From an archaeon (GTDB lineage: Archaea; EX4484-52; B79-G9), in contig JBDRKP010000065.1 in NCBI GenBank assembly GCA_043813875.1, positions 1 through 12,509 of the forward strand: 12,509 bases of DNA, read 5' to 3'. Shown here one piece after another: positions 220 through 12,509 of the stretch. Position 1 is the stretch's first letter, and each line of letters begins with the position of its first letter. The translations under genes were made by a program, and so were the position numbers. The notes under the pieces were generated by a model. That model was given only the letters and a program-made list of their open reading frames with translations, made no database searches and was not told where the DNA came from.

Positions 220-354
220 ATGTCTTCATCGGTGAATGTTTTCATTGAAGAATTATCCAGCCAGTGCTCTTTTCTTAACAAATATTTTAGAGATATAAGT
301 CTATGCAGCATTACTTCTGTATTTTTGAACAACTTAGCCGGAGGTGTATTTTGA
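220..354 (+). CDS. Possible 44-aa small ORF (MSSSVNVFIEELSSQCSFLNKYFRDISLCSITSVFLNNLAGGVF)
   Basis: ATG 220 to TGA 352-354, downstream of the TATA box. Its 3' end contains GGAGGTG (340-346). No homology recognised. Confidence 0.25.
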   Translation: MSSSVNVFIEELSSQCSFLNKYFRDISLCSITSVFLNNLAGGVF

Positions 355-360
355 TGAAGA

Positions 361-708
361 ATGAAATGTCAAAAAAGATGGGTGGATGTATTCACATCTG
401 TTGATGCGGATGCGGACGAATATAATGAAGATATAGTATATGCAGAAAAGAAAGAAGTTCTTTGTTTTAATGAAGCGGCGGATGATAAGGGCCGGAGTAT
501 TGTGCCTGCACCTCTCAGGCGGATGCGTTCTATTTCCAGAAACAACTGTGGCAGCGCCATTATAGAGCCTGTGATTCCTGTGAAGAGGGCCATATCCGAA
601 ACACAATCAGAGGTGTCAAGGATACTTGATTCTTTTGATAATGTGATCAATTACAGGCAATATGGCGATATTCTTGAGATAACGGTTGGCGGAGGTCGAT
701 TTCGATGA
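361..708 (+). CDS. Hypothetical protein (115 aa) at the head of the his operon
   Basis: Its stop overlaps the hisG start (ATGA at 705-708). GGAGGTG lies upstream at 340-346. Acidic N-terminus, no recognisable domain. Confidence 0.5.
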   Translation: MKCQKRWVDVFTSVDADADEYNEDIVYAEKKEVLCFNEAADDKGRSIVPAPLRRMRSISRNNCGSAIIEPVIPVKRAISETQSEVSRILDSFDNVINYRQYGDILEITVGGGRFR

Positions 709-1547
709 TCAGGCTTGCCATACCCAAGGGATATATGAACAAGAAGGTAATCGATCTTTTTTTGGATTGCGGTATCGTAATCAAGGAAAACGGCCGGTCA
801 TACAGGCCATATTGCAGCAATCCGGAAATCTCTGTGAAGATCAAAAAGCCGCAGAATATCGCAAAACTTGTCGAGTGCGGGGCGTATGATGCCGGTATCA
901 CCGGATATGACTGGGTCGTCGAATCTGGGGCTGATGTGGCTGAGGTTCTTGATCTTGGGTTCGATAAGGTCAAGATTGTCGCTGCTGTACCGACAGGATA
1001 TGATCTTGCGGGTGAAAAGAGGATTGTTGTCGCTTCAGAGTATGAGAACATATCGCGAAAGTTTCTTGATGAGAAAGGGTTCAAATATTCGTTTATCAGG
1101 TCTTATGGCGCTACAGAGGCATATCCGCCGGAAGATGCGGACATGATTGTCGAGAATGTGGCGACAGGGCGGACATTGGAGCAGAATAATCTCATGATTG
1201 TCTCAAGGATACTTGAATCGACAACAAGAATCATCGCGAACAAAAAGAGCATTGATGATGCCAGCAAAAGAAAGATCATCGATGACCTTGTCTGCGTGAT
1301 GAAGAGCGTGCTTCTGGGCAGATGCAAGGTCATGATCGAGATGAATGTTGATGAAAAACTGCTACCAGATTTGATAAAGGTCATACCGGCAATGAAAATG
1401 CCGACTGTCGCCAAACTTTACGGTGACTGCGGGTATGCTGTGAAGGCGTGCGTGGACAGGGGAATCGTGCGCGAGCTGATACCTATTCTTAAGACGGCAG
1501 GAGCAACCGATATTGTAGAATATGACCTCAGAAAGGTCGTGAGGTGA
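705..1547 (+). CDS. hisG: ATP phosphoribosyltransferase, long form with C-terminal regulatory domain
   Basis: RLAIPKG, DAGITGYDWVVE, LDLGF, SYGATEAYPPEDADMIVENVATGRTL, C-terminal PAMKMPTV…LKTAGATDIV. GGAGGT RBS upstream. Confidence 0.97.
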   Translation: MIRLAIPKGYMNKKVIDLFLDCGIVIKENGRSYRPYCSNPEISVKIKKPQNIAKLVECGAYDAGITGYDWVVESGADVAEVLDLGFDKVKIVAAVPTGYDLAGEKRIVVASEYENISRKFLDEKGFKYSFIRSYGATEAYPPEDADMIVENVATGRTLEQNNLMIVSRILESTTRIIANKKSIDDASKRKIIDDLVCVMKSVLLGRCKVMIEMNVDEKLLPDLIKVIPAMKMPTVAKLYGDCGYAVKACVDRGIVRELIPILKTAGATDIVEYDLRKVVR

Positions 1548-1551
1548 TTGA

Positions 1552-2838
1552 ATGACGACAATACCTATCCTTAAAAGCACGAAGTTTGATTGCAAAAGAC
1601 TGCGCCCGGATATGGATGATGCTCTCAATGCGGCGCGCCTGATAATAGATGATGTCAAGATGAGGGGCGATGAGGCATTAACCGAATATACGAAGAGATT
1701 CGATGGCGTCTACATCAATGAGCTCAAGGTGAGTGAAGAGGAAATCCGCGAAGCCTACTTTGTGGCTGATGAGGCGTTTGTCGCGTCAATACGCAAAGCC
1801 ATGGATAATGTCGAAAAGTTCCAGAAGGTCCTTTTGAAGGAGGATGTCTTTGCAGATATCTCCGATGGAATCAGATTGAGGTCGCTTGTGAGGCCGATCG
1901 ATAATATCGGCGCGTATGTGCCGGGAGGAACCGCATCATATGTGTCGACCGCTTATATGATCGGAATACCTGCAACGATTGCCGGGTGCAGGCGCAGGAT
2001 TGTCTTTACGCCGCCTAATAAATACGGCAAGATAAACCCGTATCTCATTGTCGCATGCGATATGGCGGGATTCAGCGAGATATACAAGGCGGGGGGAGCG
2101 CAGGCAATCGCTGCCATGGCATACGGGACCGAGAGTGCCGGCAAGGTCGAGAAGATATTCGGGCCGGGGAATGTGTTTGTGAATGCGGCCAAGATGATTG
2201 TCAGGGATGATGTCGCTGTCGATATGGTGGCGGGACCGTCGGAGGTGATGATCATCGCTGATGAATCGTGCAATCCGGCCTTTGTCGCAGCGGATATGCT
2301 TTCGCAGGCAGAGCATGATGCTTTATCCACAGCTCTGCTTCTCACTGATTCGCGTGATGTGGCGGATGCTGTGAAAAAAGAGATTGATTCGCAGCTAAAC
2401 GAGCTTCTGCGCAAGGACATCGCCAGAAAGGCGCTCAAGGATTACGGAAAAATCGTGGTATGCGAATCCATTGATGAATGCATCGATATCGCCAATGAGT
2501 TCGCTCCCGAGCACCTTGAGATCGCTACCAAGGATGCAGAGGATGCGCTTTCAAAGATAAGGAATGCAGGCTCTGTCTTTCTTGGCAATCTCTCGTCTGT
2601 CGTGATGGGAGATTATGCGACCGGGACCAACCACGTGCTTCCCACAATGGGATTCGCAAAGAGCATGTCGGGGCTTTCTGTTGATGATTTCGTGCGAAGG
2701 ATGGAAGTGAGTTCTATCGGGACTGAAGGACTTGCCGATATAGGGCAGACTATTGTGAGCCTTTCAGAGCTTGAGGGCCTCTTTGGGCACGCCAATGCAG
2801 TCAAATTAAGAATGGATAAAATGGAGGAGTCAAAATGA
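1552..2838 (+). CDS. hisD: Histidinol dehydrogenase
   Basis: GAYVPGG, GGAQAIAAMAYG, KIFGPGNVFV, DMVAGPSEV, DMLSQAEHD, FAPEHLE, GDYATGTNHVLPT. GAGGTGA RBS. Confidence 0.98.
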   Translation: MTTIPILKSTKFDCKRLRPDMDDALNAARLIIDDVKMRGDEALTEYTKRFDGVYINELKVSEEEIREAYFVADEAFVASIRKAMDNVEKFQKVLLKEDVFADISDGIRLRSLVRPIDNIGAYVPGGTASYVSTAYMIGIPATIAGCRRRIVFTPPNKYGKINPYLIVACDMAGFSEIYKAGGAQAIAAMAYGTESAGKVEKIFGPGNVFVNAAKMIVRDDVAVDMVAGPSEVMIIADESCNPAFVAADMLSQAEHDALSTALLLTDSRDVADAVKKEIDSQLNELLRKDIARKALKDYGKIVVCESIDECIDIANEFAPEHLEIATKDAEDALSKIRNAGSVFLGNLSSVVMGDYATGTNHVLPTMGFAKSMSGLSVDDFVRRMEVSSIGTEGLADIGQTIVSLSELEGLFGHANAVKLRMDKMEESK

Positions 2839-3416
2839 GCGTCAATGTTGAACGGAATACCAATGAGACAAAGATATGTGTAAAATTAGACATATACGGG
2901 AGCGGTCGGACGAAGATAGATACAGGGATACCGTTTTTTGACCACATGGTCGACAGCCTTGCACGGTTCGCACTGTTTGATCTTGTGGTCGAGTGCAAGG
3001 CAGACCTTGCTGTTGAAGATCACCACATGATAGAGGATGTGGCTATCGTGCTTGCGGAGGCGCTTCTTAAGGCTACGGGAGAACGGAAAGGCATAAACAG
3101 GATAGGCTATTCGATACTTCCTATGGATGATGCGGTCGTCATGGTGTCGATTGATCTTTCGAGGTCGTATTTCCAGCAGAGGGGCATCGCATTTTCGAAA
3201 GAGAAGTTCGGGAGCCTGTCTACTGAGAATATAGCGCCTTTTTTTGAGAGTCTTGCGCTCAATGCGAAGATGACGCTTTATATGAACAAGATTGAGGGAA
3301 CAAATGACCACCACATCGCTGAGGCGTGCTTCAAGGCGCTCGGATGCGCGCTCAAGATGGCGGTAGCGAAGGATGAAAGAATGCGTGATGCGCTGAGCAC
3401 GAAGGGTGTCTTATGA
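2835..3416 (+). CDS. hisB: Imidazoleglycerol-phosphate dehydratase (monofunctional)
   Basis: RNTNETKI, TGIPFFDHM, DHHMIEDV, PMDDA, NDHHIAEACFKA, STKGVL. No N-terminal phosphatase domain. ATGA overlap with hisD. Confidence 0.97.
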   Translation: MSVNVERNTNETKICVKLDIYGSGRTKIDTGIPFFDHMVDSLARFALFDLVVECKADLAVEDHHMIEDVAIVLAEALLKATGERKGINRIGYSILPMDDAVVMVSIDLSRSYFQQRGIAFSKEKFGSLSTENIAPFFESLALNAKMTLYMNKIEGTNDHHIAEACFKALGCALKMAVAKDERMRDALSTKGVL

Positions 3417-5137
3417 TGGTATCTGCCAAAAAATCGGTTTTAGGGATGAAGGAATATGTCCCACCAACGGCCAAGAGAAGAGGTATGCTTAGGCTTGACT
3501 TCAATGAGAATACGCGGGGGTGTTCGCCTAAGGTACTTGCCGCGCTCAAGGAGATCAAGGCAGATGATGTGTCCATATATCCGGATTACTCGGGTGTCTC
3601 CAAGATGATCGCCGGATATGTCGGGAACGGGATTGTGAGTGAACAGACAATGATCACAAACGGGAGCGATGAGGCAATCAAGTGTATCATGGATACTTAT
3701 GTCGAGTGCGGGGATGAGGTCGTGATGGCTGTGCCGACGTTTGACATATTCAGGGTGTATGCGACTGTCGCAGGGGCAAAGATTGTCGGTGTGCCTTATG
3801 GTGATGATATGGAGTTCCCGCTGGATGAGGTAGTATCTTCCATCAATGAGAGGACTAAGGTGGTGGTGATTGTGAATCCGAACAATCCTACCGGAACTGC
3901 CGTATCGAGGGAGGGGATACTGAAGGTCGTGAAGAAGGCAAAGGATTCTGTTGTCCTTATCGATGAGGCATATCTAGAGTATTACGGGGAGACGTGCGCT
4001 GATCTTGTCGCTATTTATGACAATGTATTTGTCATACGGACATTCTCCAAGGCGTTCGGGCTTGCGGGGCTAAGGATCGGGTATGTCCTGTCGGATGAGC
4101 GCAATATCGCATCACTGCTCAAGGTGAGGTCGCCTTACAGCATAGGGGCGGATGCGTGCATAGCGGTGGGTGCTGCGCTTGATGATGTTGATTTTGTCAG
4201 GGATTATGCGCGCGAGGTCAAAAAGAGCAGGAAGATGCTTTTTTTGGGGCTTTCCAGGCTCGGCGTCAAATGTTATCCGTCGTCTGCCAATTTTGTGCTT
4301 GCGGATTTCGGAAAGGATGCGGATTATGTGTGGAAGGAGCTTTTTTTGAATAACATCCTTACAAGAAGGTGGCCAATGAATGAGAGGCTCAAGAATTGTA
4401 TCAGGATAGGGGCAGGAACTTCTGAGGAGGCGGAGAAGGTGCTTTTGATTGTTGAGGCAGCGCTTTCTAAAAAGGAGGCGTTCATATTTGATGTAGACGG
4501 AGTGCTTGTCGACGTGTCCGGGTCTTACAGGCGGGCGGTGAAGGAGACGTGCGAGTTTTTCCTCAAAAGCGAGGTCACGGCGGATGAGATACAGAAGGTG
4601 AAGAATTCGGGCGGGTGCAATAATGACTGGGATCTTTCTATGAAAATCATCTCTCTGCGATGGAAAAATGTTCTGCGCGAGAATATAGTGTCAAAGTTCC
4701 AGGAGCTTTACATGAAGTACAGAAAGGATGAGAGATGGCTGATTTCACGGGATGTGATCGACGGGCTATCAAAGAGGTACAGGCTTGGAATCTTTAGCGG
4801 GAGGCCTCGAGAGGAATTGATTTTTGCTCTCCGTGAGTCCGGGATGGAGAAGTATTTCAATGCTGTCGTTGCCATGGAGGATGTGCCTGTGTCCAAGGGG
4901 AAGCCTGAGCCTTTCGGGTTGAAGCTTGCGCTTCGGATGCTCGGGTGCTCGAAGGGGTTCTATGCAGGGGATACTGTCGATGATGTCATGGCTGCAAAGG
5001 GCGCAGGGCTTGTGGCTGTCGGCGTGCTTGCCCCGCTGGACAAGTCGGATGAACTGAAAGGTATGCTGGTCTCTTTCGGGGCGGATTTTGTGGTGGATGA
5101 TGTCAATGACGTGTTAAACATTAATGGGGCGGTTTAG
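3413..5137 (+). CDS. hisC: Histidinol-phosphate aminotransferase fused to a C-terminal HAD-family hydrolase (probable histidinol-phosphate phosphatase)
   Basis: N-terminal ~350 aa: LDFNEN, NGSDEAI, NPNNPTG, IDEAY, RTFSKAFGLAGLRIG. C-terminal ~220 aa: FDVDGVLVD (HAD motif I, Asp codon at 4490), FSGRP, KPEP, GDTVDD. One continuous frame. Confidence 0.93.
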   Translation: MMVSAKKSVLGMKEYVPPTAKRRGMLRLDFNENTRGCSPKVLAALKEIKADDVSIYPDYSGVSKMIAGYVGNGIVSEQTMITNGSDEAIKCIMDTYVECGDEVVMAVPTFDIFRVYATVAGAKIVGVPYGDDMEFPLDEVVSSINERTKVVVIVNPNNPTGTAVSREGILKVVKKAKDSVVLIDEAYLEYYGETCADLVAIYDNVFVIRTFSKAFGLAGLRIGYVLSDERNIASLLKVRSPYSIGADACIAVGAALDDVDFVRDYAREVKKSRKMLFLGLSRLGVKCYPSSANFVLADFGKDADYVWKELFLNNILTRRWPMNERLKNCIRIGAGTSEEAEKVLLIVEAALSKKEAFIFDVDGVLVDVSGSYRRAVKETCEFFLKSEVTADEIQKVKNSGGCNNDWDLSMKIISLRWKNVLRENIVSKFQELYMKYRKDERWLISRDVIDGLSKRYRLGIFSGRPREELIFALRESGMEKYFNAVVAMEDVPVSKGKPEPFGLKLALRMLGCSKGFYAGDTVDDVMAAKGAGLVAVGVLAPLDKSDELKGMLVSFGADFVVDDVNDVLNINGAV

Positions 5138-5728
5138 ATGGAAGTATGCGTCGTTGATTACGGAGGAGGGAATGTCAGGAGCCTGTGCAATGCGCTTGAG
5201 TTTCTGGGCGCGGAGTATATATTGAGCGATGATGCGGAATATGTGCGCAATTCGGGCGTGCTTATGCTCCCGGGTGTCGGGAGTTTCGGTGCAGTCATGA
5301 ATGGCCTTGTGAAGAAGGGGCTTGATTCGGCTGTTGTCGATGCGATCGGGGCGGGGGCGAGGTTTTTTGGGATCTGCGTCGGTATGCAGGTGCTTTTCTT
5401 TGGGAGCGATGAGAGCCCGGGGGTCCCGGGGCTTTCGGTGATTGATGGAGATGTGGTCAGGTTCAACCGGGGGAAGGTGCCGCAGATCGGATGGAATACC
5501 ATCAGGACTTTGAATGAGGGTGTTTTTTTGGACGGGTATGTTTATTTTGTGAATTCATATTATTGCGTGCCGAGGGATATGGGGGTTGCCGCGTGCTTAA
5601 CGGAGTATGGGGGATTGAATTTCTGTAGCGCTTTGAGGCGCGGGAATGTCTATGCGACGCAGTTCCACCCGGAAAAGAGCGGATGGCTCGGGCTTGAGAT
5701 CATCAGGAGGTGGCTTTATGATCGCTAA
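5138..5728 (+). CDS. hisH: Imidazole glycerol phosphate synthase, glutaminase subunit
   Basis: VDYGGGNVRS, LPGVGSF, GICVGMQ, VPQIGWN, YFVNSY, TQFHPEKSG. Confidence 0.97.
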   Translation: MEVCVVDYGGGNVRSLCNALEFLGAEYILSDDAEYVRNSGVLMLPGVGSFGAVMNGLVKKGLDSAVVDAIGAGARFFGICVGMQVLFFGSDESPGVPGLSVIDGDVVRFNRGKVPQIGWNTIRTLNEGVFLDGYVYFVNSYYCVPRDMGVAACLTEYGGLNFCSALRRGNVYATQFHPEKSGWLGLEIIRRWLYDR

Positions 5729-6482
5729 GAGGATCGTGCCGTGCCTTGATATGAAGGACGGGAAGGTCGTGAAGGGAGTAGGTTTTGATAATCTTCGGGA
5801 TGCCGGGGATCCTGTAGTGCTTGCGCGGAAGTATTATGAAGACGGGGCAGATGAGATTGTCTTTCTTGATATCAGCGCGTCTACTGATAAAAGGGATATC
5901 CTGATCGATGTAGTTTCCAGGACGGCTTCTGAGATATTCATACCATTCACTGTCGGGGGAGGGGTGAGGAGCGTCTCTGACATTTCACGGATACTTGCGA
6001 ACGGGGCGGACAAGGTGGCATTGAATACTAATGCGGTCCTTGATCCGTGGCTTATTTCAAAAGCGGCAAAGGAGTTCGGGGCGCAGTGTGTGGTTGTCGC
6101 TGTCGATGCGAAATGGAACGGCAGGTTTTTCGAGGTTTTCATATTCGGCGGAAAGGAGGGTACCGGGATGGATGCAGTCTCATGGGTGAAGAGGTGCGAG
6201 GAACTCGGCTGCGGGGAGATTCTTCTTACTTCGATTGACAGGGACGGCACGAAGTCGGGGTTTGATACCGGGCTTATCAGGAAAGTCTCAACATGCGTCA
6301 ATGTGCCTGTCATCGCTTCCGGCGGGGCGAGGGGGCCTGAGGATTTCTATGATGCATTTTTAGCGGGCGCTGATGCGGCGCTTGCGGCATCGATCTTTCA
6401 CTATAGCAAATATACTATCGGTGACATAAAGGAGTTTTTGAAAAAAAAAGGAGTTGTTGTAAATGATGAAACTTTTGGGTAA
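5718..6482 (+). CDS. hisF: Imidazole glycerol phosphate synthase, cyclase subunit
   Basis: Start reassigned from 5646 to ATG 5718 (AGGAGGTGG at 5705-5713; canonical MIAKRIVPCLD). Also GADEIVFLDISA, PFTVGGG, GEILLTSIDRDGTKSGFD, ASGG, AALAASIFH. Confidence 0.97.
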   Translation: MIAKRIVPCLDMKDGKVVKGVGFDNLRDAGDPVVLARKYYEDGADEIVFLDISASTDKRDILIDVVSRTASEIFIPFTVGGGVRSVSDISRILANGADKVALNTNAVLDPWLISKAAKEFGAQCVVVAVDAKWNGRFFEVFIFGGKEGTGMDAVSWVKRCEELGCGEILLTSIDRDGTKSGFDTGLIRKVSTCVNVPVIASGGARGPEDFYDAFLAGADAALAASIFHYSKYTIGDIKEFLKKKGVVVNDETFG

Positions 6483-6527
6483 ATTTGGGGGTTTCAACCT
6501 CTACAATGGATGCATGGGTGATTGTAA

Positions 6528-7799
6528 ATGATTTTACCAAGTATTGATCTGTTGGACGGGAAAGCGGTGCAGCTGGTTGGCGGAGATCCCTTAAAGAAAA
6601 AGGTTGTCGTTGATGATGTTTTCGGGCTTGCGAGTGAGTTCTTTCGGTACGGGAAGTTCCAGGTGATTGATCTTGATGCAGCTTTCTGGAAGGGGAGAGA
6701 TAACAGAGGCATTGTAAAGGAGCTTTGCAGGAAGTATGATGTCAGGGTCGGCGGGGGTATAAGGACTGTCGATGAGGCGGTTGAGCTTGTCAGGTGCGGC
6801 GCAAAAGAGGTCATTATCGGGACGCGGGCGAACAAAGAGTTCCTAAAGGAACTTTGCGATGCTATCGGGCGAAAGAGGGTTGTTGTCGCGCTTGATGCGA
6901 GGAATGGAATGGTCGAGTCATGGGGATGGACCAAGGGTACTGGAAGGAGCGTTCTTGAGGTCGCAAAAGAGCTTGAGAACTACTGCTCTGAGTTCCTCTA
7001 TACCTGTATCGATAAGGAAGGGCGCATGATTGGCGGTGATATTGATACGGTCATGAAGCTCAAGGAAATCACGTCTAATAAGATCTGCGCGTCCGGAGGG
7101 ATATCTGCGGTTGATGAGATACGGAAGTTCGATGAGATAGGCGCTAATGTGGTCTTGGGGATGGCGCTTTATACAGGGAAGCTTTCTCTTGATGAGGTGT
7201 TTGCATCAAGGGTTGATTTTGCCAAGGGCGGGGGCATTGTGCCTGTTGTTGTCCAGGAGGCGGTCTCGCGGGATGTGCTTATGGTCGGATATATGGATAA
7301 GGAGGCGCTTTCTTTGACGCTCAAATCGGGTAAGATGACATATTACAGCAGGTCGAGGAAGAAGATGTGGGTCAAGGGCGAGGAGAGCGGGAATTCGCAG
7401 GAGCTTGTGTCTATAAAGCTTGACTGCGACAGGGACACTGTTCTTGCGACGGTCAGGCAGACGGGAGGTGCATGCCACACGGGAAGCTATTCATGCTTTG
7501 GTGATGAGAACCGGTCAGAAAGTAATATATTAACTGGCGTGTATAATGTTATCCAGGAAAGGATCAAGTATCCAAAAGAGGATTCATATACAAGCAAAAT
7601 CGCGAAGGATAAGGAACTGATCTCACGAAAGATCAATGAAGAGGCTCTGGAGGTCATTATTGCTTCAAAGGACGGGAAAAGAGAAGAGATCGTGTGGGAG
7701 ATTGCCGATCTTGTGTATTTTATTCTTGTTCTTGCTGCTGCCAATGATATCGATATGAGAGAGATATGGAATATGCTTGATTCAAGAAGGAGTGGTTGA
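6528..7799 (+). CDS. hisA: Trifunctional fusion: ProFAR isomerase (HisA), PR-AMP cyclohydrolase (HisI) and PR-ATP pyrophosphohydrolase (HisE)
   Basis: HisA: ILPSIDLLDGKAVQL, VIDLDAA, VGGGIR, ASGGI. HisI: PVVVQE, YYSRSR…WVKGEESGN, DCDRD, ACHTGSYSCF. HisE: SYTSKI, KINEEALEV, EIADLVY. Confidence 0.93.
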   Translation: MILPSIDLLDGKAVQLVGGDPLKKKVVVDDVFGLASEFFRYGKFQVIDLDAAFWKGRDNRGIVKELCRKYDVRVGGGIRTVDEAVELVRCGAKEVIIGTRANKEFLKELCDAIGRKRVVVALDARNGMVESWGWTKGTGRSVLEVAKELENYCSEFLYTCIDKEGRMIGGDIDTVMKLKEITSNKICASGGISAVDEIRKFDEIGANVVLGMALYTGKLSLDEVFASRVDFAKGGGIVPVVVQEAVSRDVLMVGYMDKEALSLTLKSGKMTYYSRSRKKMWVKGEESGNSQELVSIKLDCDRDTVLATVRQTGGACHTGSYSCFGDENRSESNILTGVYNVIQERIKYPKEDSYTSKIAKDKELISRKINEEALEVIIASKDGKREEIVWEIADLVYFILVLAAANDIDMREIWNMLDSRRSG

Positions 7800-7800
7800 T

Positions 7801-9087
7801 ATGGTCAAAATCGAGAAAGTGAAGGGCATGAGGGATTATGAGACTGAGGACATGGTCCTTCGGCGGAATGTCGTGGCGATGGTTGAGAAGATATTTGAGG
7901 CGCGCGGATTTGTGCCTATCGAGACGCCTGCGCTTGAGAAGTGGGATGTGCTTGCAGGGAAAGATGCAGGCGGGCGCGATATCTTAGAGCAGACGTTCAA
8001 TTTCCTTGACCAGGGGGACAGGAGGGTAGGGCTCAGGTATGATCTTACTGTGCCGCTTGTGAGATATGTGTCCGAGAGATCGAATATGGGGTTCCCGTTC
8101 AAGAGGTACCAGTACGGGCGAGTGTGGAGGTATGAGGAGACGCGGAAAGGACGGTATCGTGAGTTTTACCAGTTTGATATTGATATTGTCGGGGCTGGCT
8201 CTGTCGCTGCTGATGCCGAGTGCATAGCGACTATCACGGAGGCGCTTGGGGCGCTCGGTGTCGGGAAGTTCAAGGTGCTTATCAGCAACCGGAAGGTTGC
8301 CGAAGGGGTGCTTAATTTTCTTGGGATAAAGACGAAGAAGCAGGTTGACGGGGCGATGAGGACTATCGACAAGGCGGAGAAGCTGTCGAGGGCGAATCTT
8401 ATCAAGGAGTTCAAGCAGTATGATATTGTGGAGGCGCAGGCGATTGAGATCATCAATGCGCTTTCGAGGAAGGGCAGGCCGGTCGAGGTCATACGCAGCA
8501 TGTTGAAGGAGTTCCCGGACAATGACAAGGTACTTCTGGGTATCTCTGAGCTTGAGAAGCTTGTGGATTATCTCAATGCTTACGGGGTGACTGACAGGTG
8601 TGAGCTTGATCTTTCGCTTGTGCGGGGGCTCGGGTATTATACGGGGTGCGTGTTTGAGGCGCGGCTTGATAAGGGAGGGGACAGCATCGCGGGAGGCGGA
8701 CGTTATGATAAGGTCATCGGGTCGTTTACTTCGCGAGAGATTCCGGCGGTCGGGTTTTCGCTCGGCATCGAGAGGATCCTTAATATCCTGAAGGAGAAGG
8801 ATTATGTGAAGAGGCCGCTTGTTGAGTATTTTGTGCTTTATGCGGGGGCGGAGATGGAGTTTTCGGCTATCAAGATCGCGGAGGCGCTACGGGCTGAGGG
8901 GAGGATTGCCGAGGTCGATCTTATGGGAAGGAATTTTTCCGGGCAGATGAAGTATGCGGACAGGATTGGAGCGCTGAAAGTGGTCATCGTCGGGCAGAAA
9001 GAGATGGCCAGCGGCAATGTGGTTGTGAAGGATATGAAGAGCGGGAAGGAGCTAATAGTTGCTGTCGAGGGGATTTTGGGGGTCTGA
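7801..9087 (+). CDS. hisS: Histidyl-tRNA synthetase
   Basis: Likely start ATG 7801 (AGGAGTGG upstream). KGMRDY, LRYDLTVP, WRYE…GRYREFYQFDID, LVRGLGYYTG, GGGRYD, plus a C-terminal anticodon-binding domain (QMKYAD…VIVGQKE…VVKDM). Confidence 0.96.
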   Translation: MVKIEKVKGMRDYETEDMVLRRNVVAMVEKIFEARGFVPIETPALEKWDVLAGKDAGGRDILEQTFNFLDQGDRRVGLRYDLTVPLVRYVSERSNMGFPFKRYQYGRVWRYEETRKGRYREFYQFDIDIVGAGSVAADAECIATITEALGALGVGKFKVLISNRKVAEGVLNFLGIKTKKQVDGAMRTIDKAEKLSRANLIKEFKQYDIVEAQAIEIINALSRKGRPVEVIRSMLKEFPDNDKVLLGISELEKLVDYLNAYGVTDRCELDLSLVRGLGYYTGCVFEARLDKGGDSIAGGGRYDKVIGSFTSREIPAVGFSLGIERILNILKEKDYVKRPLVEYFVLYAGAEMEFSAIKIAEALRAEGRIAEVDLMGRNFSGQMKYADRIGALKVVIVGQKEMASGNVVVKDMKSGKELIVAVEGILGV

Positions 9088-9091
9088 GTTG

Positions 9092-9922
9092 TCATATCAA
9101 GTGCGATAGTCTTTCTATGTCACGGTTTGTCACGTGGGTGTAAATCTGCGTTGTCCTTATGTCTTTGTGGCCTAGAAGCTTTTGGATGTGGCGTATATCC
9201 GCGCCATTGTCTAGTAAATGGGTTGCAAAGGCGTGCCTTAATGTGTGAGGTGTTGCTTTTTTGTTAAATGTTGGCAGAGTTGATGCTTTTTTTACTATCT
9301 TCTGGATTGTTTTTTTGTTGTATCTTGTTCCTCTTTTTGATATGAAAATGAAGCCTTTGTCTTTGATGTCGTGTAGTTTCAAGACTCCTTTTAGGCTGTT
9401 GTGGAGGAAAACTATGCGGTGTTTGTCACCTTTTGCTGTCTTTAAGTGTATGATTGAGCGTTCAAAGTCAATGTCCTGCCACATGAGGTTTCTTACTTCG
9501 TCGAGCCTTAAGCCTGCGTAGTACAAAAACATCAAGATGAGCCGATGTTTGAGATTTGCGGTCGAGTTGATTATGATGTCTATGTCGTGCCTGCTTAGGA
9601 TGACGGGAAGTTTCTGATCTTTTTTTGCCAGAGGGATTTTTTGATTGAAATCAATGTCTAAGACGTGATTGTGGAAGAATTTCAGGGCAAAATAGTTTGT
9701 TCTTACGGTGGAGTTGGATTTCTCTGATTGCATTAAGAGATAGTCTCTTGGGCTTTTTCCTGTTTTGAGGTAGTTTTTGATTATTGATATGTAGACTTTT
9801 CCTGTCTCGTAGGAGTATTTGCGTAGTTTGATTTCTTCGATTAGTTTGCCGATGAGGCGATATATCTCATCTGGTGTGTGAATGATTGTGGGATTTTGGT
9901 CTTGAGTTTTTGTGTATATCAT
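9092..9922 (-). CDS. Tyrosine recombinase, integron-integrase-like / XerA-like (~276 aa)
   Basis: Catalytic set YAGLRLDE (R), AKGDK (K), HTLRH (HxxR), LLGH, TTQIYTHV (Y). N-terminal LRKYSYET..VY and KLPVILS resemble IntI. Start reassigned to ATG 9922 because the longer 10069 frame runs through the att region and a TATA-like box lies ~25 bp upstream of 9922. Confidence 0.9.
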   Translation of the reverse strand: MIYTKTQDQNPTIIHTPDEIYRLIGKLIEEIKLRKYSYETGKVYISIIKNYLKTGKSPRDYLLMQSEKSNSTVRTNYFALKFFHNHVLDIDFNQKIPLAKKDQKLPVILSRHDIDIIINSTANLKHRLILMFLYYAGLRLDEVRNLMWQDIDFERSIIHLKTAKGDKHRIVFLHNSLKGVLKLHDIKDKGFIFISKRGTRYNKKTIQKIVKKASTLPTFNKKATPHTLRHAFATHLLDNGADIRHIQKLLGHKDIRTTQIYTHVTNRDIERLSHLI

Positions 9923-9942
9923 CTGATTGAATGAGGTTTTTT

Positions 9943-9953
9943 TAGATATAAGT
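9943..9953 (-). promoter_or_regulatory. Putative TATA box of the recombinase gene (possibly a leaderless transcript)
   Basis: Minus strand reads ACTTATATCTA, ~25 nt upstream of ATG 9922. Confidence 0.4.
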
Positions 9954-9996
9954 ATTGTGGATAGGGTTTGCCGATAGCCGATATAATTAAATCGCC

Positions 9997-10067
9997 AAAA
10001 AGTTCGCTTTTTGCTCATTTTTTGAGGGTTAAACGAACTAAAAGTTCGTTTAATAGTTGTTATATTC
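9997..10067 (+). other. attI-like primary recombination site
   Basis: Upstream of the divergent recombinase. Direct repeat AAAAGTTCG (9998-10006, 10040-10048), perfect 11-bp inverted repeat TTAAACGAACT-AAA-AGTTCGTTTAA (10029-10053), then the core GTTATATTC (10059-10067). Confidence 0.65.
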
Positions 10068-10221
10068 AATCGTCGTGTAGAATTATTAGGGGGGGGTTTC
10101 CGCCTTTAGTGCTACGCACATTTAGCCTTTTTCTACGAAAAAGAATTTATAAGGGGGATTTCCTAAGTCCTGCGAACATTTTGCCTCACTTCGTGAGAAT
10201 ATTAATAGAAAGAGAGGGCGT
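10066..10221 (+). repeat. Non-coding cassette module, copy A (imperfect inverted repeat of 11772-11910)
   Basis: Five colinear blocks shared with the reverse complement of copy B: TCGTCGTGT, GGGGGTTTCCGCC, AAAAAGAAT, GGGGGATTT, AGAGAGGGCGT. Confidence 0.75.
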
Positions 10222-10222
10222 T

Positions 10223-11569
10223 TTATTCTAATTTTGCTCCCTTTTTACGATTACATTCAATACATAAAAGTTGTCCATTTTCAACTATGGATCTTCCGGT
10301 TTTACTATGAGGGACTATATGGTCTGCCTCAAATTCTGCCCAAAGTATCTCTTTCTTACAATTTTGACATAATCCTCCTGCTTTTCTAAATATCTCAATT
10401 TTATCTTTCAAATTAAATGCCCTTTTTTCATCTAATTCCGCAATATGAGGACATTTTGCAAAGAATGATGAAGTTATAATCATATCTCTAGATATTAAAC
10501 TAGCCTTGTCTTGTTGTCGTTTGTTACTAAATCTAATAATTTCATCATCTTCGTCATTTTGTTTTATCCACCTGCTAAAAAAATCAAAAATAAACTCTCT
10601 AAATTCAGGATAATTATTTTTTCCGAAATTATACTTTTTTGAGTTTAATTTTCTTAACAAAATATATGTAGAAATAATAAAATATTCCCTACTAAGCATG
10701 ATAGCTTCTCCTTTCTTATCTTTAAATTTTTGATCATTAAATATTTCATATAATATCTTTAACATATTTAGACAATTTATAACTTCTTTCTTCTTTTCAA
10801 ATTCACTAAGAGGCATATTTGAATAGTGATCCATTAATTTTGTAATTTCAGTATCTTTTAGTTCTGAGGGACCATCTTCAAACTCAATTATTAGAAATCG
10901 TGCCAATAATGCAAGATTTTGCAAACGATCATTATTTTGTTTAATTATTTTAAAAAATTTGTGTCTATCTGGATTTTCATCCTTTGAGAGATATTCCTTA
11001 TCATTGAAGGAGATATCATCAGCATATTTTACTATAAAATTTCTAGATGCACTATATAATTTAGAATGCTCAATTTCAAAATTACTTAGGGGGACCCCGG
11101 AATTTAGTCTTTGAAAAATTCCCGAAACGATCTTTTGGTGTTTTTTGTTGTGAGGATCATTTATTATCCCTATCTTACTACAGGGCAATACTAATTCTTC
11201 AAAATATTCTTGAACTTCTGGATCCATTTTAGAGAATAATCTTCCTCCGAATTTATCATTTATTTCATTTAGTACCAAGGGGGTTTTAAATCCATCTTCA
11301 AAAAATTCTTGAATTGCAGTAATTCTTTGCTGTCCATCAATAACATCAAACTTTAAAACTCCTTCTTTTGGAACAACTTCTCTTAAGATAATTCTTGGAA
11401 CAAAATATTTTCTAAATAAGCTCTCAATAAATTTCTGTTTTTTAATAGGAGGCCAAACATTTTTTCTTTGATAGGGTGGCCTTTTAATGTAGAGATTTTT
11501 TTTATTATTAAAATCTTTAAGATAAATTTCTCCATCCGTGGCCATAAAATCGGTTTTAATGTGAATCAT
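10223..11569 (-). CDS. DUF262 (ParB-like, GmrS-type) domain fused to a C-terminal HNH endonuclease; probable restriction/defence nuclease
   Basis: DUF262 motifs RPPYQRKNVW, IESL, VIDGQQRITAI, FQRLNSGVPLS. C-terminal CQNC…EADHIVPHSKTG…NGQLLCIECNRKKG (Zn-binding HNH). Confidence 0.88.
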   Translation of the reverse strand: MIHIKTDFMATDGEIYLKDFNNKKNLYIKRPPYQRKNVWPPIKKQKFIESLFRKYFVPRIILREVVPKEGVLKFDVIDGQQRITAIQEFFEDGFKTPLVLNEINDKFGGRLFSKMDPEVQEYFEELVLPCSKIGIINDPHNKKHQKIVSGIFQRLNSGVPLSNFEIEHSKLYSASRNFIVKYADDISFNDKEYLSKDENPDRHKFFKIIKQNNDRLQNLALLARFLIIEFEDGPSELKDTEITKLMDHYSNMPLSEFEKKKEVINCLNMLKILYEIFNDQKFKDKKGEAIMLSREYFIISTYILLRKLNSKKYNFGKNNYPEFREFIFDFFSRWIKQNDEDDEIIRFSNKRQQDKASLISRDMIITSSFFAKCPHIAELDEKRAFNLKDKIEIFRKAGGLCQNCKKEILWAEFEADHIVPHSKTGRSIVENGQLLCIECNRKKGAKLE

Positions 11570-11712
11570 TTCCTGTCCCCCTTCCCCCTCAATTCCTCAA
11601 CCATAAAATTCTCAAACTGCTTCGACAAAATAATACCTTTTTGTTCGCAGTGTTTTCTGTATTCTTCATAAACTCCTTCTTCAACACTTAATGATACGGT
11701 TCTTTTTGCCAT
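11566..11712 (-). CDS. Small ribbon-helix-helix (CopG/Arc-like) DNA-binding protein, 48 aa (MAKRTVSLSVEEGVYEEYRKHCEQKGIILSKQFENFMVEELRGKGDRK)
   Basis: Translated by hand; below the ORF-track cutoff. Alternating beta-strand RTVSLSV followed by two amphipathic helices with a KG-I-LS turn. Its TGA overlaps the DUF262 ATG (ATGA). Confidence 0.75.
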   Translation of the reverse strand: MAKRTVSLSVEEGVYEEYRKHCEQKGIILSKQFENFMVEELRGKGDRK

Positions 11713-11728
11713 ATTTACCAATCCATTT

Positions 11729-11768
11729 ATGTATATATAAGCTTAAATGTAACTTATTTATAAATCTT
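11729..11768 (-). promoter_or_regulatory. Putative archaeal promoter (and operator) of the RHH-DUF262 operon
   Basis: Minus strand has AAGATTTATAAATAAG (11768-11753) and CTTATATATACAT (11741-11729). ATGTA is repeated at 11729 and 11747. Confidence 0.5.
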
Positions 11769-11771
11769 ACG

Positions 11772-11910
11772 ACGCCCTCTCTAAAAAATCTTCTTTTTGT
11801 AAAAAGAACCAAAAACAACGCAAATCCCCCCACTATTCTTTTTTTATAAAAAATAAGCAAAAAACGGCGGCGGAAACCCCCATAAAAAACTATAGACACG
11901 ACGACTTTGA
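11772..11910 (-). repeat. Non-coding cassette module, copy B (inverted relative to 10066-10221)
   Basis: Top-strand blocks ACGCCCTCTCT 11772-11782, AAATCCCCC 11822-11830, ATTCTTTTT 11835-11843, GGCGGAAACCCCC 11869-11881, ACACGACGA 11896-11904. Confidence 0.75.
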
Positions 11911-11957
11911 TTTTTTGCCTTCGGCATCGTTGCACTAAAAATCAATCCCTATCGGGA

Positions 11958-12089
11958 GAATATAACAGCGATTAAGAGATTCCGAAGTCTTGCAGACTTC
12001 TCCATCCAAATTCGGTTTTTGTGGGTTGCCTCAAAACCTACGGGGAAATAAATCCTTCGGATTTACTTCTCTTAATCGCGATGTTAGTT
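11958..12089 (+). other. attC-like cassette recombination site (~130 bp hairpin)
   Basis: Left arm GAATATAAC-A-GCGATTAAGAGA; right arm TCTCTTAATCGC-GA-T-GTTAGTT. TAACA pairs with TGTTA, followed by a perfect 12-bp stem (11968-11979 with 12068-12079). Three internal hairpins form the variable terminal structure. Confidence 0.8.
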
Positions 12090-12254
12090 TCAATTGAGAA
12101 TTCGCCGTCCTATATAATTTAAAATCGCCCTTTAGCCATCCCCCGACCACCCGTCCCAGTTACGAGGTGCGCGCCTGTCCTTCGGACAATTTGTGAAACT
12201 TCGTTTCAAATTTATTTAGAAATAATCTTTTTTCCGCCGCCGAAAAATTTTGAT

Positions 12255-12271
12255 AGAAAGTTTTATATAAG
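12255..12271 (+). promoter_or_regulatory. Archaeal BRE-TATA-like promoter inside cassette 2
   Basis: AGAAAGTTTTATATAAG: a purine-rich BRE-like stretch followed by TTTATATA. Confidence 0.6.
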
Positions 12272-12365
12272 TCTTTCTTTTACTTTTATTGTGGGGTGAT
12301 GGTACCTCAGAAACCTTATTCTGAATCACAATAAAGTTTAAATAAACTAAATGCAGCTTAAGAAC

Positions 12366-12509
12366 ATGGAAAAAGCATATCAACCATCCAGAGAACAGCA
12401 AGACTATCTTGAGATTAGTTCTGTTTTGGAAAATGCACCTTACCTTCTTAACGAAGGTAGAAGTTTGAGTTATGTTGGTGCAGGAAAATCCAAATCTGGA
12501 ACTTGTAAT
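12366..12509 (+). CDS. 5' part of a hypothetical cassette gene (MEKAYQPSREQQDYLEISSVLENAPYLLNEGRSLSYVGAGKSKSGTCN…), partial
   Basis: Open to the window edge, downstream of the BRE-TATA. An alternative in-frame ATG lies at 12351. Confidence 0.5.
   Translation, partial: MEKAYQPSREQQDYLEISSVLENAPYLLNEGRSLSYVGAGKSKSGTCN

Follow-up and report, generated by a model that had tools for sequence, protein, structure and literature searches.

A probable integron-like gene-capture platform with a Xer-type recombinase beside hisS in an archaeal genome

Our analysis of a 12,509-nt stretch of archaeal DNA, referred to below as the window, indicates that the region following the histidine–tRNA ligase gene (hisS) is probably an integron-like gene-capture platform, in which a Xer-type tyrosine recombinase would act on folded single-stranded DNA sites. 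We put the probability of this reading at about 65%. A previous reading made from the sequence alone had proposed either an integron or a parallel system in an archaeon. Our results favour the parallel system and not a canonical integron, as the recombinase is of the Xer type and lacks the insertion specific to the integron integrase IntI. The window is the whole of contig C65 of the metagenome-assembled genome (MAG) labelled G000 (1.64 Mb, 90 contigs, 91.5% complete, GC content 0.44). All the genomes compared are MAGs, and the relatives of G000 carry labels of the same form (such as G005). G000 gave a 177-bit match to the eIF-6 family, which was otherwise matched only by four archaeal controls, and TruD, RFC and eIF-6 are encoded by its relatives.

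The recombinase gene is transcribed away from the cassette array, as the sequence-only reading had described. The ATG at 9922 was taken as its start, since homologues begin nearby, although the open reading frame (ORF) could be read from a TTG at 10069. The protein scored 178.2 and 177.2 bits against the XerA_Arch model NF040815 (cut-off 220), 170.7 bits against the IntI model TIGR02249 (cut-off 265) and 112.6 bits against a second IntI model (cut-off 435). The TIGR02249 match was in two stretches, with model positions 177–237 unmatched; at the place of the IntI-specific insertion the recombinase has 18 residues (182–200), compared with 63 (178–241) in IntI4 (2a3v). The closest solved structures were those of XerA (4a8e and 5hxy), with alignments that cover almost the whole protein and include the box II and tyrosine motifs; the catalytic motifs are intact. 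Judged by these comparisons, the protein is a Xer-type recombinase without the IntI insertion and the presumed cassette recombinase of the locus; it is not a canonical integron integrase.

The locus might instead be a canonical integron whose IntI has degenerated or diverged, since the layout, the AAC/GTT boxes and the cassette arrays are the same. Integrons have already been published from Archaea: according to the available parts of the survey by Ghaly et al. (Sci Adv 2022, PMC9668308), they occur in 75 of 6718 archaeal genomes, some of them Nanoarchaeota; the survey counted 539 attCs, most of them in arrays that lack IntI, and six IntIs with the IntI-specific domain. We nevertheless consider this explanation the least probable of all. 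The insertion is absent, both IntI cut-offs were missed, and the archaeal attCs printed in the supplement of that survey, only a few of the 539, are short simple hairpins that lack the ATTTGG motif of the sites described here.

The attC-like TAAC…GTTA hairpin noticed earlier is present with a length of 124 nt, but it forms a three-way junction and no simple stem. A 17-bp closing stem surrounds three inner hairpins (z-score −2.9), and only 1 of 200 shuffled sequences folded as well. On G007:C16, five intergenic gaps lie upstream of the recombinase homologue; four contain a similar 82–88-nt hairpin and the fifth contains the recombinase-proximal site. Nine hairpins found by hand have in common an outer TAAC/GTTA stem, an asymmetric internal loop and an inner stem that varies in sequence yet remains complementary, as well as a junction made of GAAGT, a mini-hairpin, ATTTGG and a second hairpin. 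RNAalifold predicted 16 outer pairs for these nine, eight of them with compensatory changes. A scan of G000 for simple TAAC…GTTA stems was uninformative (6 matches, 4 in a shuffled genome), so that a covariance model was needed. The model built from the nine hairpins, R1, was used with a threshold of E ≤0.01 and matched 39 of 61 genomes, a sample biased toward relatives, including 14 of the 15 from the same family. There were up to 33 matches per genome, and five in G000. No Rfam family corresponds to the hairpin; the window gave two sub-threshold snoRNA-like matches, which are irrelevant.

Covariation was analysed in 93 R1 matches from 29 stretches, with lengths of 73–174 nt. Of the cells assigned to pairs, 94.4% did pair (73.2% in shuffles), 311 showed double changes (103.5 ± 9.8 in shuffles), and the covariation score was 0.571, against 0.186 in shuffles and at most 0.134 with partners slid; as the alignment was fitted to our own model, these pair counts lean toward structure. 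The AAC/GTT boxes were kept in 93, 92 and 89 of the 93 matches, and all 11 inner pairs covary. This conservation and covariation is the pattern of attC sites.

The two strands are not equivalent. The 93 matches contain 111 G.T or T.G cells and 12 A.C or C.A cells. Neutral transitions would produce both kinds equally, which indicates that one strand is selected to fold. Folding concerns the recombinase-sense strand (minus in the window), and integron attC sites likewise fold as the "bottom", integrase-sense strand. Of the 63 intervals between hairpins, the dominant ORF lies opposite this strand in 52 and on it in 10, and one has no ORF, so that an mRNA element is unlikely. Terminal loops are also distinctive: of 187 predicted, 109 were triloops, with 91 of the form [C/T]-GNA-[G/A] and 58 C-GNA-G. 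GCGNAGC-type mini-hairpins have been described, in the available parts of two reports, as extraordinarily stable in DNA, considerably less so in RNA, and present at single-stranded DNA origins (PMC13037366; PMC3201870). The far greater stability of GNA loops in DNA suggests that the substrate is folded single-stranded DNA.

The same data bear on whether the hairpins act as RNA, for instance as signals for processing or termination, or as a non-coding RNA, on transcripts directed toward the recombinase gene. Covariation and tolerance of G.T pairs fit RNA as well as single-stranded DNA, and the strand that folds has the sense of the recombinase gene. This explanation is nonetheless very unlikely in view of the antisense position relative to most ORFs, the dominance of C-G-closed GNA triloops, for which the first of the two reports gives far greater stability in DNA than in RNA (PMC13037366, as far as available), and the lack of any Rfam match.

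An attI-like site upstream of the recombinase, also proposed from the sequence alone, is present as a composite site that shares a direct repeat (D10) and an inverted repeat (I10) with the hairpin arm. Its box motif GTTATATTC is common to this proximal site and both hairpin arms. Four copies occur in the 1.64-Mb genome, three of them in the window, while five shuffled genomes contained 0, 0, 0, 4 and 0. The same motif recurs upstream of recombinase homologues in three relatives, G007, G005 and G012. The palindrome within the site resembles dif in form only, no dif search having been made.

Copies of the proximal site without a recombinase gene were found on two other contigs, and G000 appears from its sequence to hold two decayed platforms besides the window, on C40 and C77. 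On C77, a 90%-identical copy (23489–23600) lies just after TldD/PmbA genes, with ORFans beyond it, and a weak hairpin match (15363–15468) lies 8 kb away. The decayed platform on C40 (14000–19951) has minus-strand ORFs of cassette type, one of them GNAT, then a hairpin of the family (16425–16519). A 68-aa C-terminal recombinase fragment (C40:16701–16904) ends 3 nt from the stop of a gene for a 1014-aa class I aminoacyl-tRNA synthetase. Other short C-terminal recombinase fragments (42–86 aa matched, 56–73% identical) were seen at G046:C16:15627–15797 and on G003:C117, G002:C178, G006:C81, G040:C53 and G022:C32.

In relatives, the hairpins form co-oriented arrays. All 26 stretches with at least two matches have every match on one strand, the largest array consisting of eight hairpins (G046:C15). 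The start-to-start spacing has a median of 1026 bp (range 332–6937). The ORFs between the hairpins are unrelated and mostly single; for 41 typical cassettes with one ORF, the median distance from the preceding hairpin to the ORF start is 66 nt and that from the ORF stop to the next hairpin 70 nt. No homologous pair was found among 93 cassette ORFs at E 1e-8; since no cassettes are shared between arrays, movement is not demonstrable from the genomes. A Pfam scan covered 72 of the 93 ORFs, the shortest and those already scanned being left out, and 35 of the 72 had no Pfam family. The families found among cassette ORFs include a second GmrSD, a methylase with a CfrBI endonuclease, type I restriction-modification subunits, HNH, PDDEXK, GNAT, HD, deaminase, HIT, glycosyltransferases and a transporter. 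This profile matches the one reported for integron cassettes in the available parts of PMC9668308.

These arrays weigh on the possibility that the hairpins are repeats of the miniature inverted-repeat transposable element (MITE) or repetitive extragenic palindromic (REP) kind, moved by another enzyme and only incidentally linked to the recombinase. Singleton hairpins do occur away from any recombinase (G000:C16, C70 and C77), the recombinase is missing or fragmentary in two hairpin-bearing genomes (G025 and G046), and the hairpin with its neighbouring element has a very high summed depth in groundwater contigs. On the other hand, copies of a MITE would resemble each other, and the hairpins have inner sequences that differ but still pair. 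The arrays are co-oriented in every source, the polarity toward the recombinase is constant in 12 loci, the association is limited to one recombinase clade, and the 72 scanned cassette ORFs include no transposase. We regard such repeats as an improbable explanation.

The link with one recombinase clade was seen in bacteria as well as in archaea. Six of 80 bacterial loci fetched with the recombinase carry R1 matches, the others being mostly generic Xer homologues, and all 13 matches in the six lie upstream of the homologue and on its strand. The six loci come from candidate-phyla MAGs, two of them labelled Gammaproteobacteria. Three recombinases labelled "uncultured Gammaproteobacteria" (L029, L031 and L032, of which L031 has a hairpin array) fall inside the candidate-phyla subclade, and the label may be wrong. 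R1 found nothing in about 296 kb surrounding 31 further archaeal homologues except the four known sites of G000.

Among 69 full-length homologues, 12 are linked to arrays, 34 are not, with at least 2 kb of upstream DNA present, and 23 could not be judged. Maximum-likelihood analysis places all 12 of the linked recombinases together in a single 37-row clade (support 95/87) made up of archaea and bacteria of the candidate phyla radiation (CPR); its other rows comprise 8 unlinked and 17 of unknown status. The 32 rows outside include no linked member (26 not linked, 6 unknown). Within the clade, a bacterial subclade of 15 rows has six linked, nine unknown and no unlinked members. None of the 13 archaeal rows of a separate clade, which cover six families of the order, is array-linked. 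As relatives are not independent, no p-value is given for the association. In 12 loci, archaeal and bacterial, the hairpins keep their polarity toward the recombinase. Among the refutations named by the sequence-only reading was a lack of association between homologous recombinases and such hairpins; they are associated, within one clade.

The clade is also informative as to whether the recombinase is simply the ordinary XerA of the host, exploited by hairpin cassettes, with its proximity being secondary. Integrative mobile elements exploiting Xer (IMEX) and the pdif modules of Acinetobacter plasmids use XerCD in this way. The protein is the best XerA_Arch match in G000, whose assembly contains no other full-length Xer-type gene; its closest solved structures are XerA; and the palindrome of the proximal site has the form of a dif-type core. 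A different long tyrosine integrase (G000:C55:1979–2821, in an open frame of 465 aa), about 29% identical to the recombinase, probably belongs to another mobile element. A host XerA is, however, unlikely, though less so than any other alternative considered. The recombinase scored 177–178 bits against the cut-off of 220, its gene stands at different loci in relatives of the genus (beside hisS, NUDIX, RNase T, TruD or RFC genes), the 13-row archaeal clade, with no array-linked member, lies apart from the linked clade, and three relatives of the genus (79–89% complete) have no full-length homologue.

Anchoring of the platform at the 3′ end of hisS, another point of the earlier reading, was confirmed: the stop codon of the recombinase gene lies 4 nt from that of hisS (9087), so that the platform abuts hisS. 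The position of the hisS stop codon is the same in four relatives of the genus, and homology between genomes ends 4 nt past it. Beyond hisS, the GC content falls from about 0.5 to 0.24–0.31 and the strand bias reverses. Comparison of gene content at this locus, proposed earlier as a check, showed that G000 and G005 share the hisS–recombinase junction, with recombinases 81% identical. The hisS contig of G005 ends inside the recombinase gene, and a second contig starts with the N-terminus of a recombinase, followed by six hairpins and unrelated cassettes; both break within the gene, and the join between them is a candidate rather than a certainty. In G004, G006 and G007 other genes follow hisS and no recombinase is found there. 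Close homologues elsewhere adjoin NUDIX, RNase T, TruD or RFC genes, the neighbours differing in G007, G003, G012 and G005:C39, and no conserved sequence was seen past the recombinase stop codon at seven platform junctions.

An ordinary mobile element or genomic island beside hisS, with an integrase and defence cargo and with the hairpin as an unrelated terminator or repeat, would account for an integrase lying flush against a housekeeping gene, for the low-GC, foreign cargo and for the absence of the locus after hisS in those three relatives. The usual att sites were looked for. A tRNA gene as integration target was rejected, there being none in the window, and so was a direct repeat of the hisS 3′ end, of which the G000 assembly has no second copy. 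The hairpin, moreover, belongs to a conserved family arrayed between genes with its polarity fixed toward the recombinase, and the cassette recurs without the integrase in other metagenomes. We therefore think an ordinary island rather improbable.

The coordinates of all these features are given in Table 1. The 2-kb AT-rich first cassette noticed earlier is present (GC content 0.24–0.31, compared with 0.44 for the genome), but its orientation is atypical, as both of its genes are on the minus strand and face the recombinase. Its limits are predicted, the right one by analogy. The larger gene encodes a GmrSD_N (DUF262) protein that gave PADLOC matches to NsnA (4.7e-26) and PD-T4-2_A (6.2e-18). 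GmrSD_C (DUF1524) was not matched in it by Pfam, the C-terminal domain being HNH. This cargo is a DUF262-HNH variant and a candidate anti-phage defence gene. It was found in only one of the 61 genomes searched, G000 itself, and a protein search of metagenome contigs gave no close relative and one HNH match of 32 residues. The 48-aa ORF overlapping its start, with no Pfam or PADLOC match, is possibly a ribbon-helix-helix (RHH) regulator. By its composition and gene content, the cassette would be a foreign low-GC defence module of RHH-like and GmrSD_N-HNH genes with its own upstream region. The defence cassette of G022:C28 is likewise in the atypical orientation.

Table 1. Features of the window and the evidence for them
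Feature	Position	Strand	Evidence or remark
his operon	361–7799		Pfam, TIGR
hisS (histidine–tRNA ligase), last gene of the his operon	7777–9087	+	TIGR00442 368.9 bits (cut-off 286.75); Pfam tRNA-synt_His
Xer-type tyrosine recombinase, 276 aa	9092–9922	−	Pfam Phage_integrase 9.4e-39
Proximal composite (attI-like) site	9985–10069	−	Partial repeat 9987–10009; 10+5+10 palindrome 10029–10053; R-type box GTTATATTC 10059–10067
Cassette 1, 2024 bp (predicted limits)	10060–12083		TT of proximal GTT box to G of hairpin GTTA
Inverted repeat (~150 bp, imperfect), left arm	10066–10231		Local alignment
GmrSD_N (DUF262) + HNH nuclease, 448 aa	10223–11569	−	Pfam GmrSD_N 1.1e-17, HNH 1.3e-11
Small ORF, 48 aa, overlapping nuclease gene start	11566–11712	−	ORF list, translation
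Inverted repeat, right arm	11758–11910		Local alignment
Second conserved mini-hairpin element beside main hairpin	11904–11942	−	Homologous elements follow hairpins of G007:C16
attC-like hairpin, 124 nt, three-way junction	11963–12086	−	TAAC 11963–11966, GTTA 12083–12086; R1 82.1 bits, E 5.6e-15
Start of cassette 2	12084–12509	+	ORF 12351–12509, cut by contig end

The inverted repeat of this cassette brackets the RHH-like and GmrSD-like genes and is built of GNA mini-hairpins. Its alignment score was 69, compared with 28.0 ± 5.1 (maximum 49) in 200 shuffles. Two blocks of it occur only at these two places in the genome, and one cassette of G007 has a 14-nt counterpart. An invertible segment or a transposon was considered here, with neither supported nor excluded. 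The start of a second cassette, which had also been noticed earlier, is present: its plus-strand ORF, in the typical orientation away from the recombinase, runs off the contig. The translation of this ORF is protein-like, the minus-strand frame looks non-coding, and there was no family match in Pfam or TIGR. No other contig of G000 overlaps the right end of the window.

The first cassette was also found in a different context. Assembled contigs of four groundwater runs (X1–X4) from three studies were aligned to positions 6500–12509 at ≥90% identity. The cassette is present at about 95–96% identity in X1 and X2, which belong to one study, and in X4, from another; differences from the window numbered 75 over 10061–11798 and 88 over 10061–11968. 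The three cassette-bearing contigs all begin to match at 10061, inside the GTTATAT box and within 2 nt of GTT. One of them, a 2050-nt contig of X4, has 114 further letters to the left that are unlike the window, which means that the cassette has another left neighbour there and that the switch falls at the predicted site. No contig at least 90% alike covered the hisS and recombinase bodies (6701–8710 and 9314–9916) in the four runs, which is not evidence of their absence.

At the right end, the summed contig depth in three of the four runs was 160–430 over bins of the hairpin and the neighbouring element and reached about 1,500–1,800 at 11916–11925, where the fourth run had 127; over the cassette body it was 6–30. 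Many groundwater contigs diverge at 11904 and at 11940–11972. The hairpin and the element are highly repeated in these samples, so contigs break there and the right limit of the cassette is not visible. Contig joints linking the outer ends of the inverted repeat had sides of only 28–37 letters, too weak to be used.

Several observations weigh against a gene-capture platform. A strain whose proximal site and recombinase are less than 90% alike would give the same contig pattern in the groundwater data, and the join at about 10060, lying in repeated sequence, could be an assembly chimera. The data, being assembled contigs, contained no circle junction, empty site or array variant of the same strain. 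The window itself has only one full hairpin, its first cassette is in the atypical orientation, and the covariation counts carry the bias of the R1-fitted alignment. The recombinase is without the IntI insertion that grips extrahelical attC bases, so that a different mode of site recognition would be needed. Eight homologues of the linked clade have no hairpins in at least 2 kb of upstream DNA; the recombinase is on the expected side but inverted in G022:C28, G005:C65 and G042:C32; G025 has hairpins and no recombinase homologue; and G046 has 16 hairpins and only a 57-aa fragment.

If the locus is such a platform, its substrates would be hairpins of about 85–125 nt extruded from the recombinase-sense strand; the recombinase would bind their AAC/GTT boxes in paired form and exchange strands in or beside the GTT box. 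Recombination between two hairpins would excise a cassette, presumably as a circular intermediate, and recombination of a hairpin with the recombinase-proximal site would insert it, the product being resolved by replication as in integrons. Upstream of the recombinase gene this would leave unrelated cassettes in an array, most of them with a single gene. Strand and register would have to be recognised in another way than in integrons, with the asymmetric internal loop and the conserved three-way junction as obvious candidates.

Some other features were observed in passing. The window encodes two fused proteins of the his pathway, an aminotransferase (HisC-type) with a HAD phosphatase domain (3413–5137, 574 aa) and a HisA/HisF-type barrel with PRA-CH and PRA-PH (6528–7799, 423 aa). 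A structured repeat of about 160 nt, unrelated to the hairpins, is present on at least 20 contigs of G000 (e.g., C76:2680–2838, C51:254–413 and C39:27962–28125). In G006 it lies about 1 kb beyond hisS, G007 has it elsewhere, and it looks like a MITE or a small RNA family.

From the sequences compared, the design appears to recur in many ultra-small archaea and bacteria. We see about even odds that it represents a new gene-capture family of ultra-small archaea and CPR/Patescibacteria, integron-like with a Xer-type recombinase that lacks the IntI insertion and with three-way-junction sites of single-stranded DNA composed of GNA mini-hairpins, and either ancestral to IntI integrons or an independent parallel. 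Xer is the usual outgroup of IntI, and a working Xer-type cassette system would thus be a testable candidate for the origin of integron recombination. Integrons are defined and surveyed by IntI and its insertion, and a working system of this kind would widen the definition. It may also explain the excess of integrase-less attC arrays in Archaea. Ultra-small archaea and bacteria are otherwise thought to be poor in mobile elements; in those of groundwater, the platform would be a major route of gene flow, anti-phage defence genes included. The R1 site model and the recombinase clade together provide a means to search metagenomes for such loci. In full-text literature searches, which included the available part of PMC12259885 and covered few subscription journals, we found no account of a Xer-type recombinase serving cassette arrays in these lineages.

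Compared with known systems, the candidate defence cargo shares its N-terminal DUF262/GmrSD_N domain with GmrSD type IV enzymes and with PADLOC NsnA and PD-T4-2. It differs from GmrSD in having HNH instead of GmrSD_C (DUF1524) at the C-terminus and a small upstream ORF. The recombinase resembles those of the XerA/dif and pdif systems in being a short Xer-type enzyme with intact catalytic motifs, and pdif modules are also gene modules bounded by Xer sites. But dif and pdif sites have 28-bp double-stranded cores, whereas the sites described here are hairpins under single-strand selection, arrayed with fixed polarity beside the recombinase gene. The recombinase also scored less than the XerA model requires, and its gene lacks synteny between genomes.

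For candidate phyla, Smyshlyaev et al. (Mol Syst Biol 2021, PMC8138268) grouped recombinases related to Xer as "Cand" and regarded them as possible substitutes for Xer. Ours are similarly simple and Xer-like, and the bacterial members of the linked clade come from candidate-phyla genomes. In contrast to the locus studied here, the available parts of that report do not mention cassette arrays or hairpin sites.

The closest parallel is with integrons. R1 matched 39 of 61 genomes and integrons were reported in 75 of 6718 (PMC9668308, as far as available), the two samples not being comparable. Like integrons, the system has a tyrosine recombinase at one end, transcribed away from the array; a proximal site sharing the GTT box with the cassette sites; co-oriented imperfect-palindrome sites with invariant AAC/GTT boxes and covarying inner stems, folded as the "bottom" strand; compact, mostly single and unrelated ORFs pointing away from the recombinase; and a cargo rich in unknowns, restriction-modification and defence genes. 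Arrays without a recombinase occur in both. Unlike integrons, its recombinase has no IntI-specific insertion and is closest to XerA, a conserved three-way junction (GAAGT/ATTTGG) of GNA mini-hairpins takes the place of the free variable loop, in this genus the site is followed by another conserved mini-hairpin element, and the platform stands at different chromosomal loci in close relatives.

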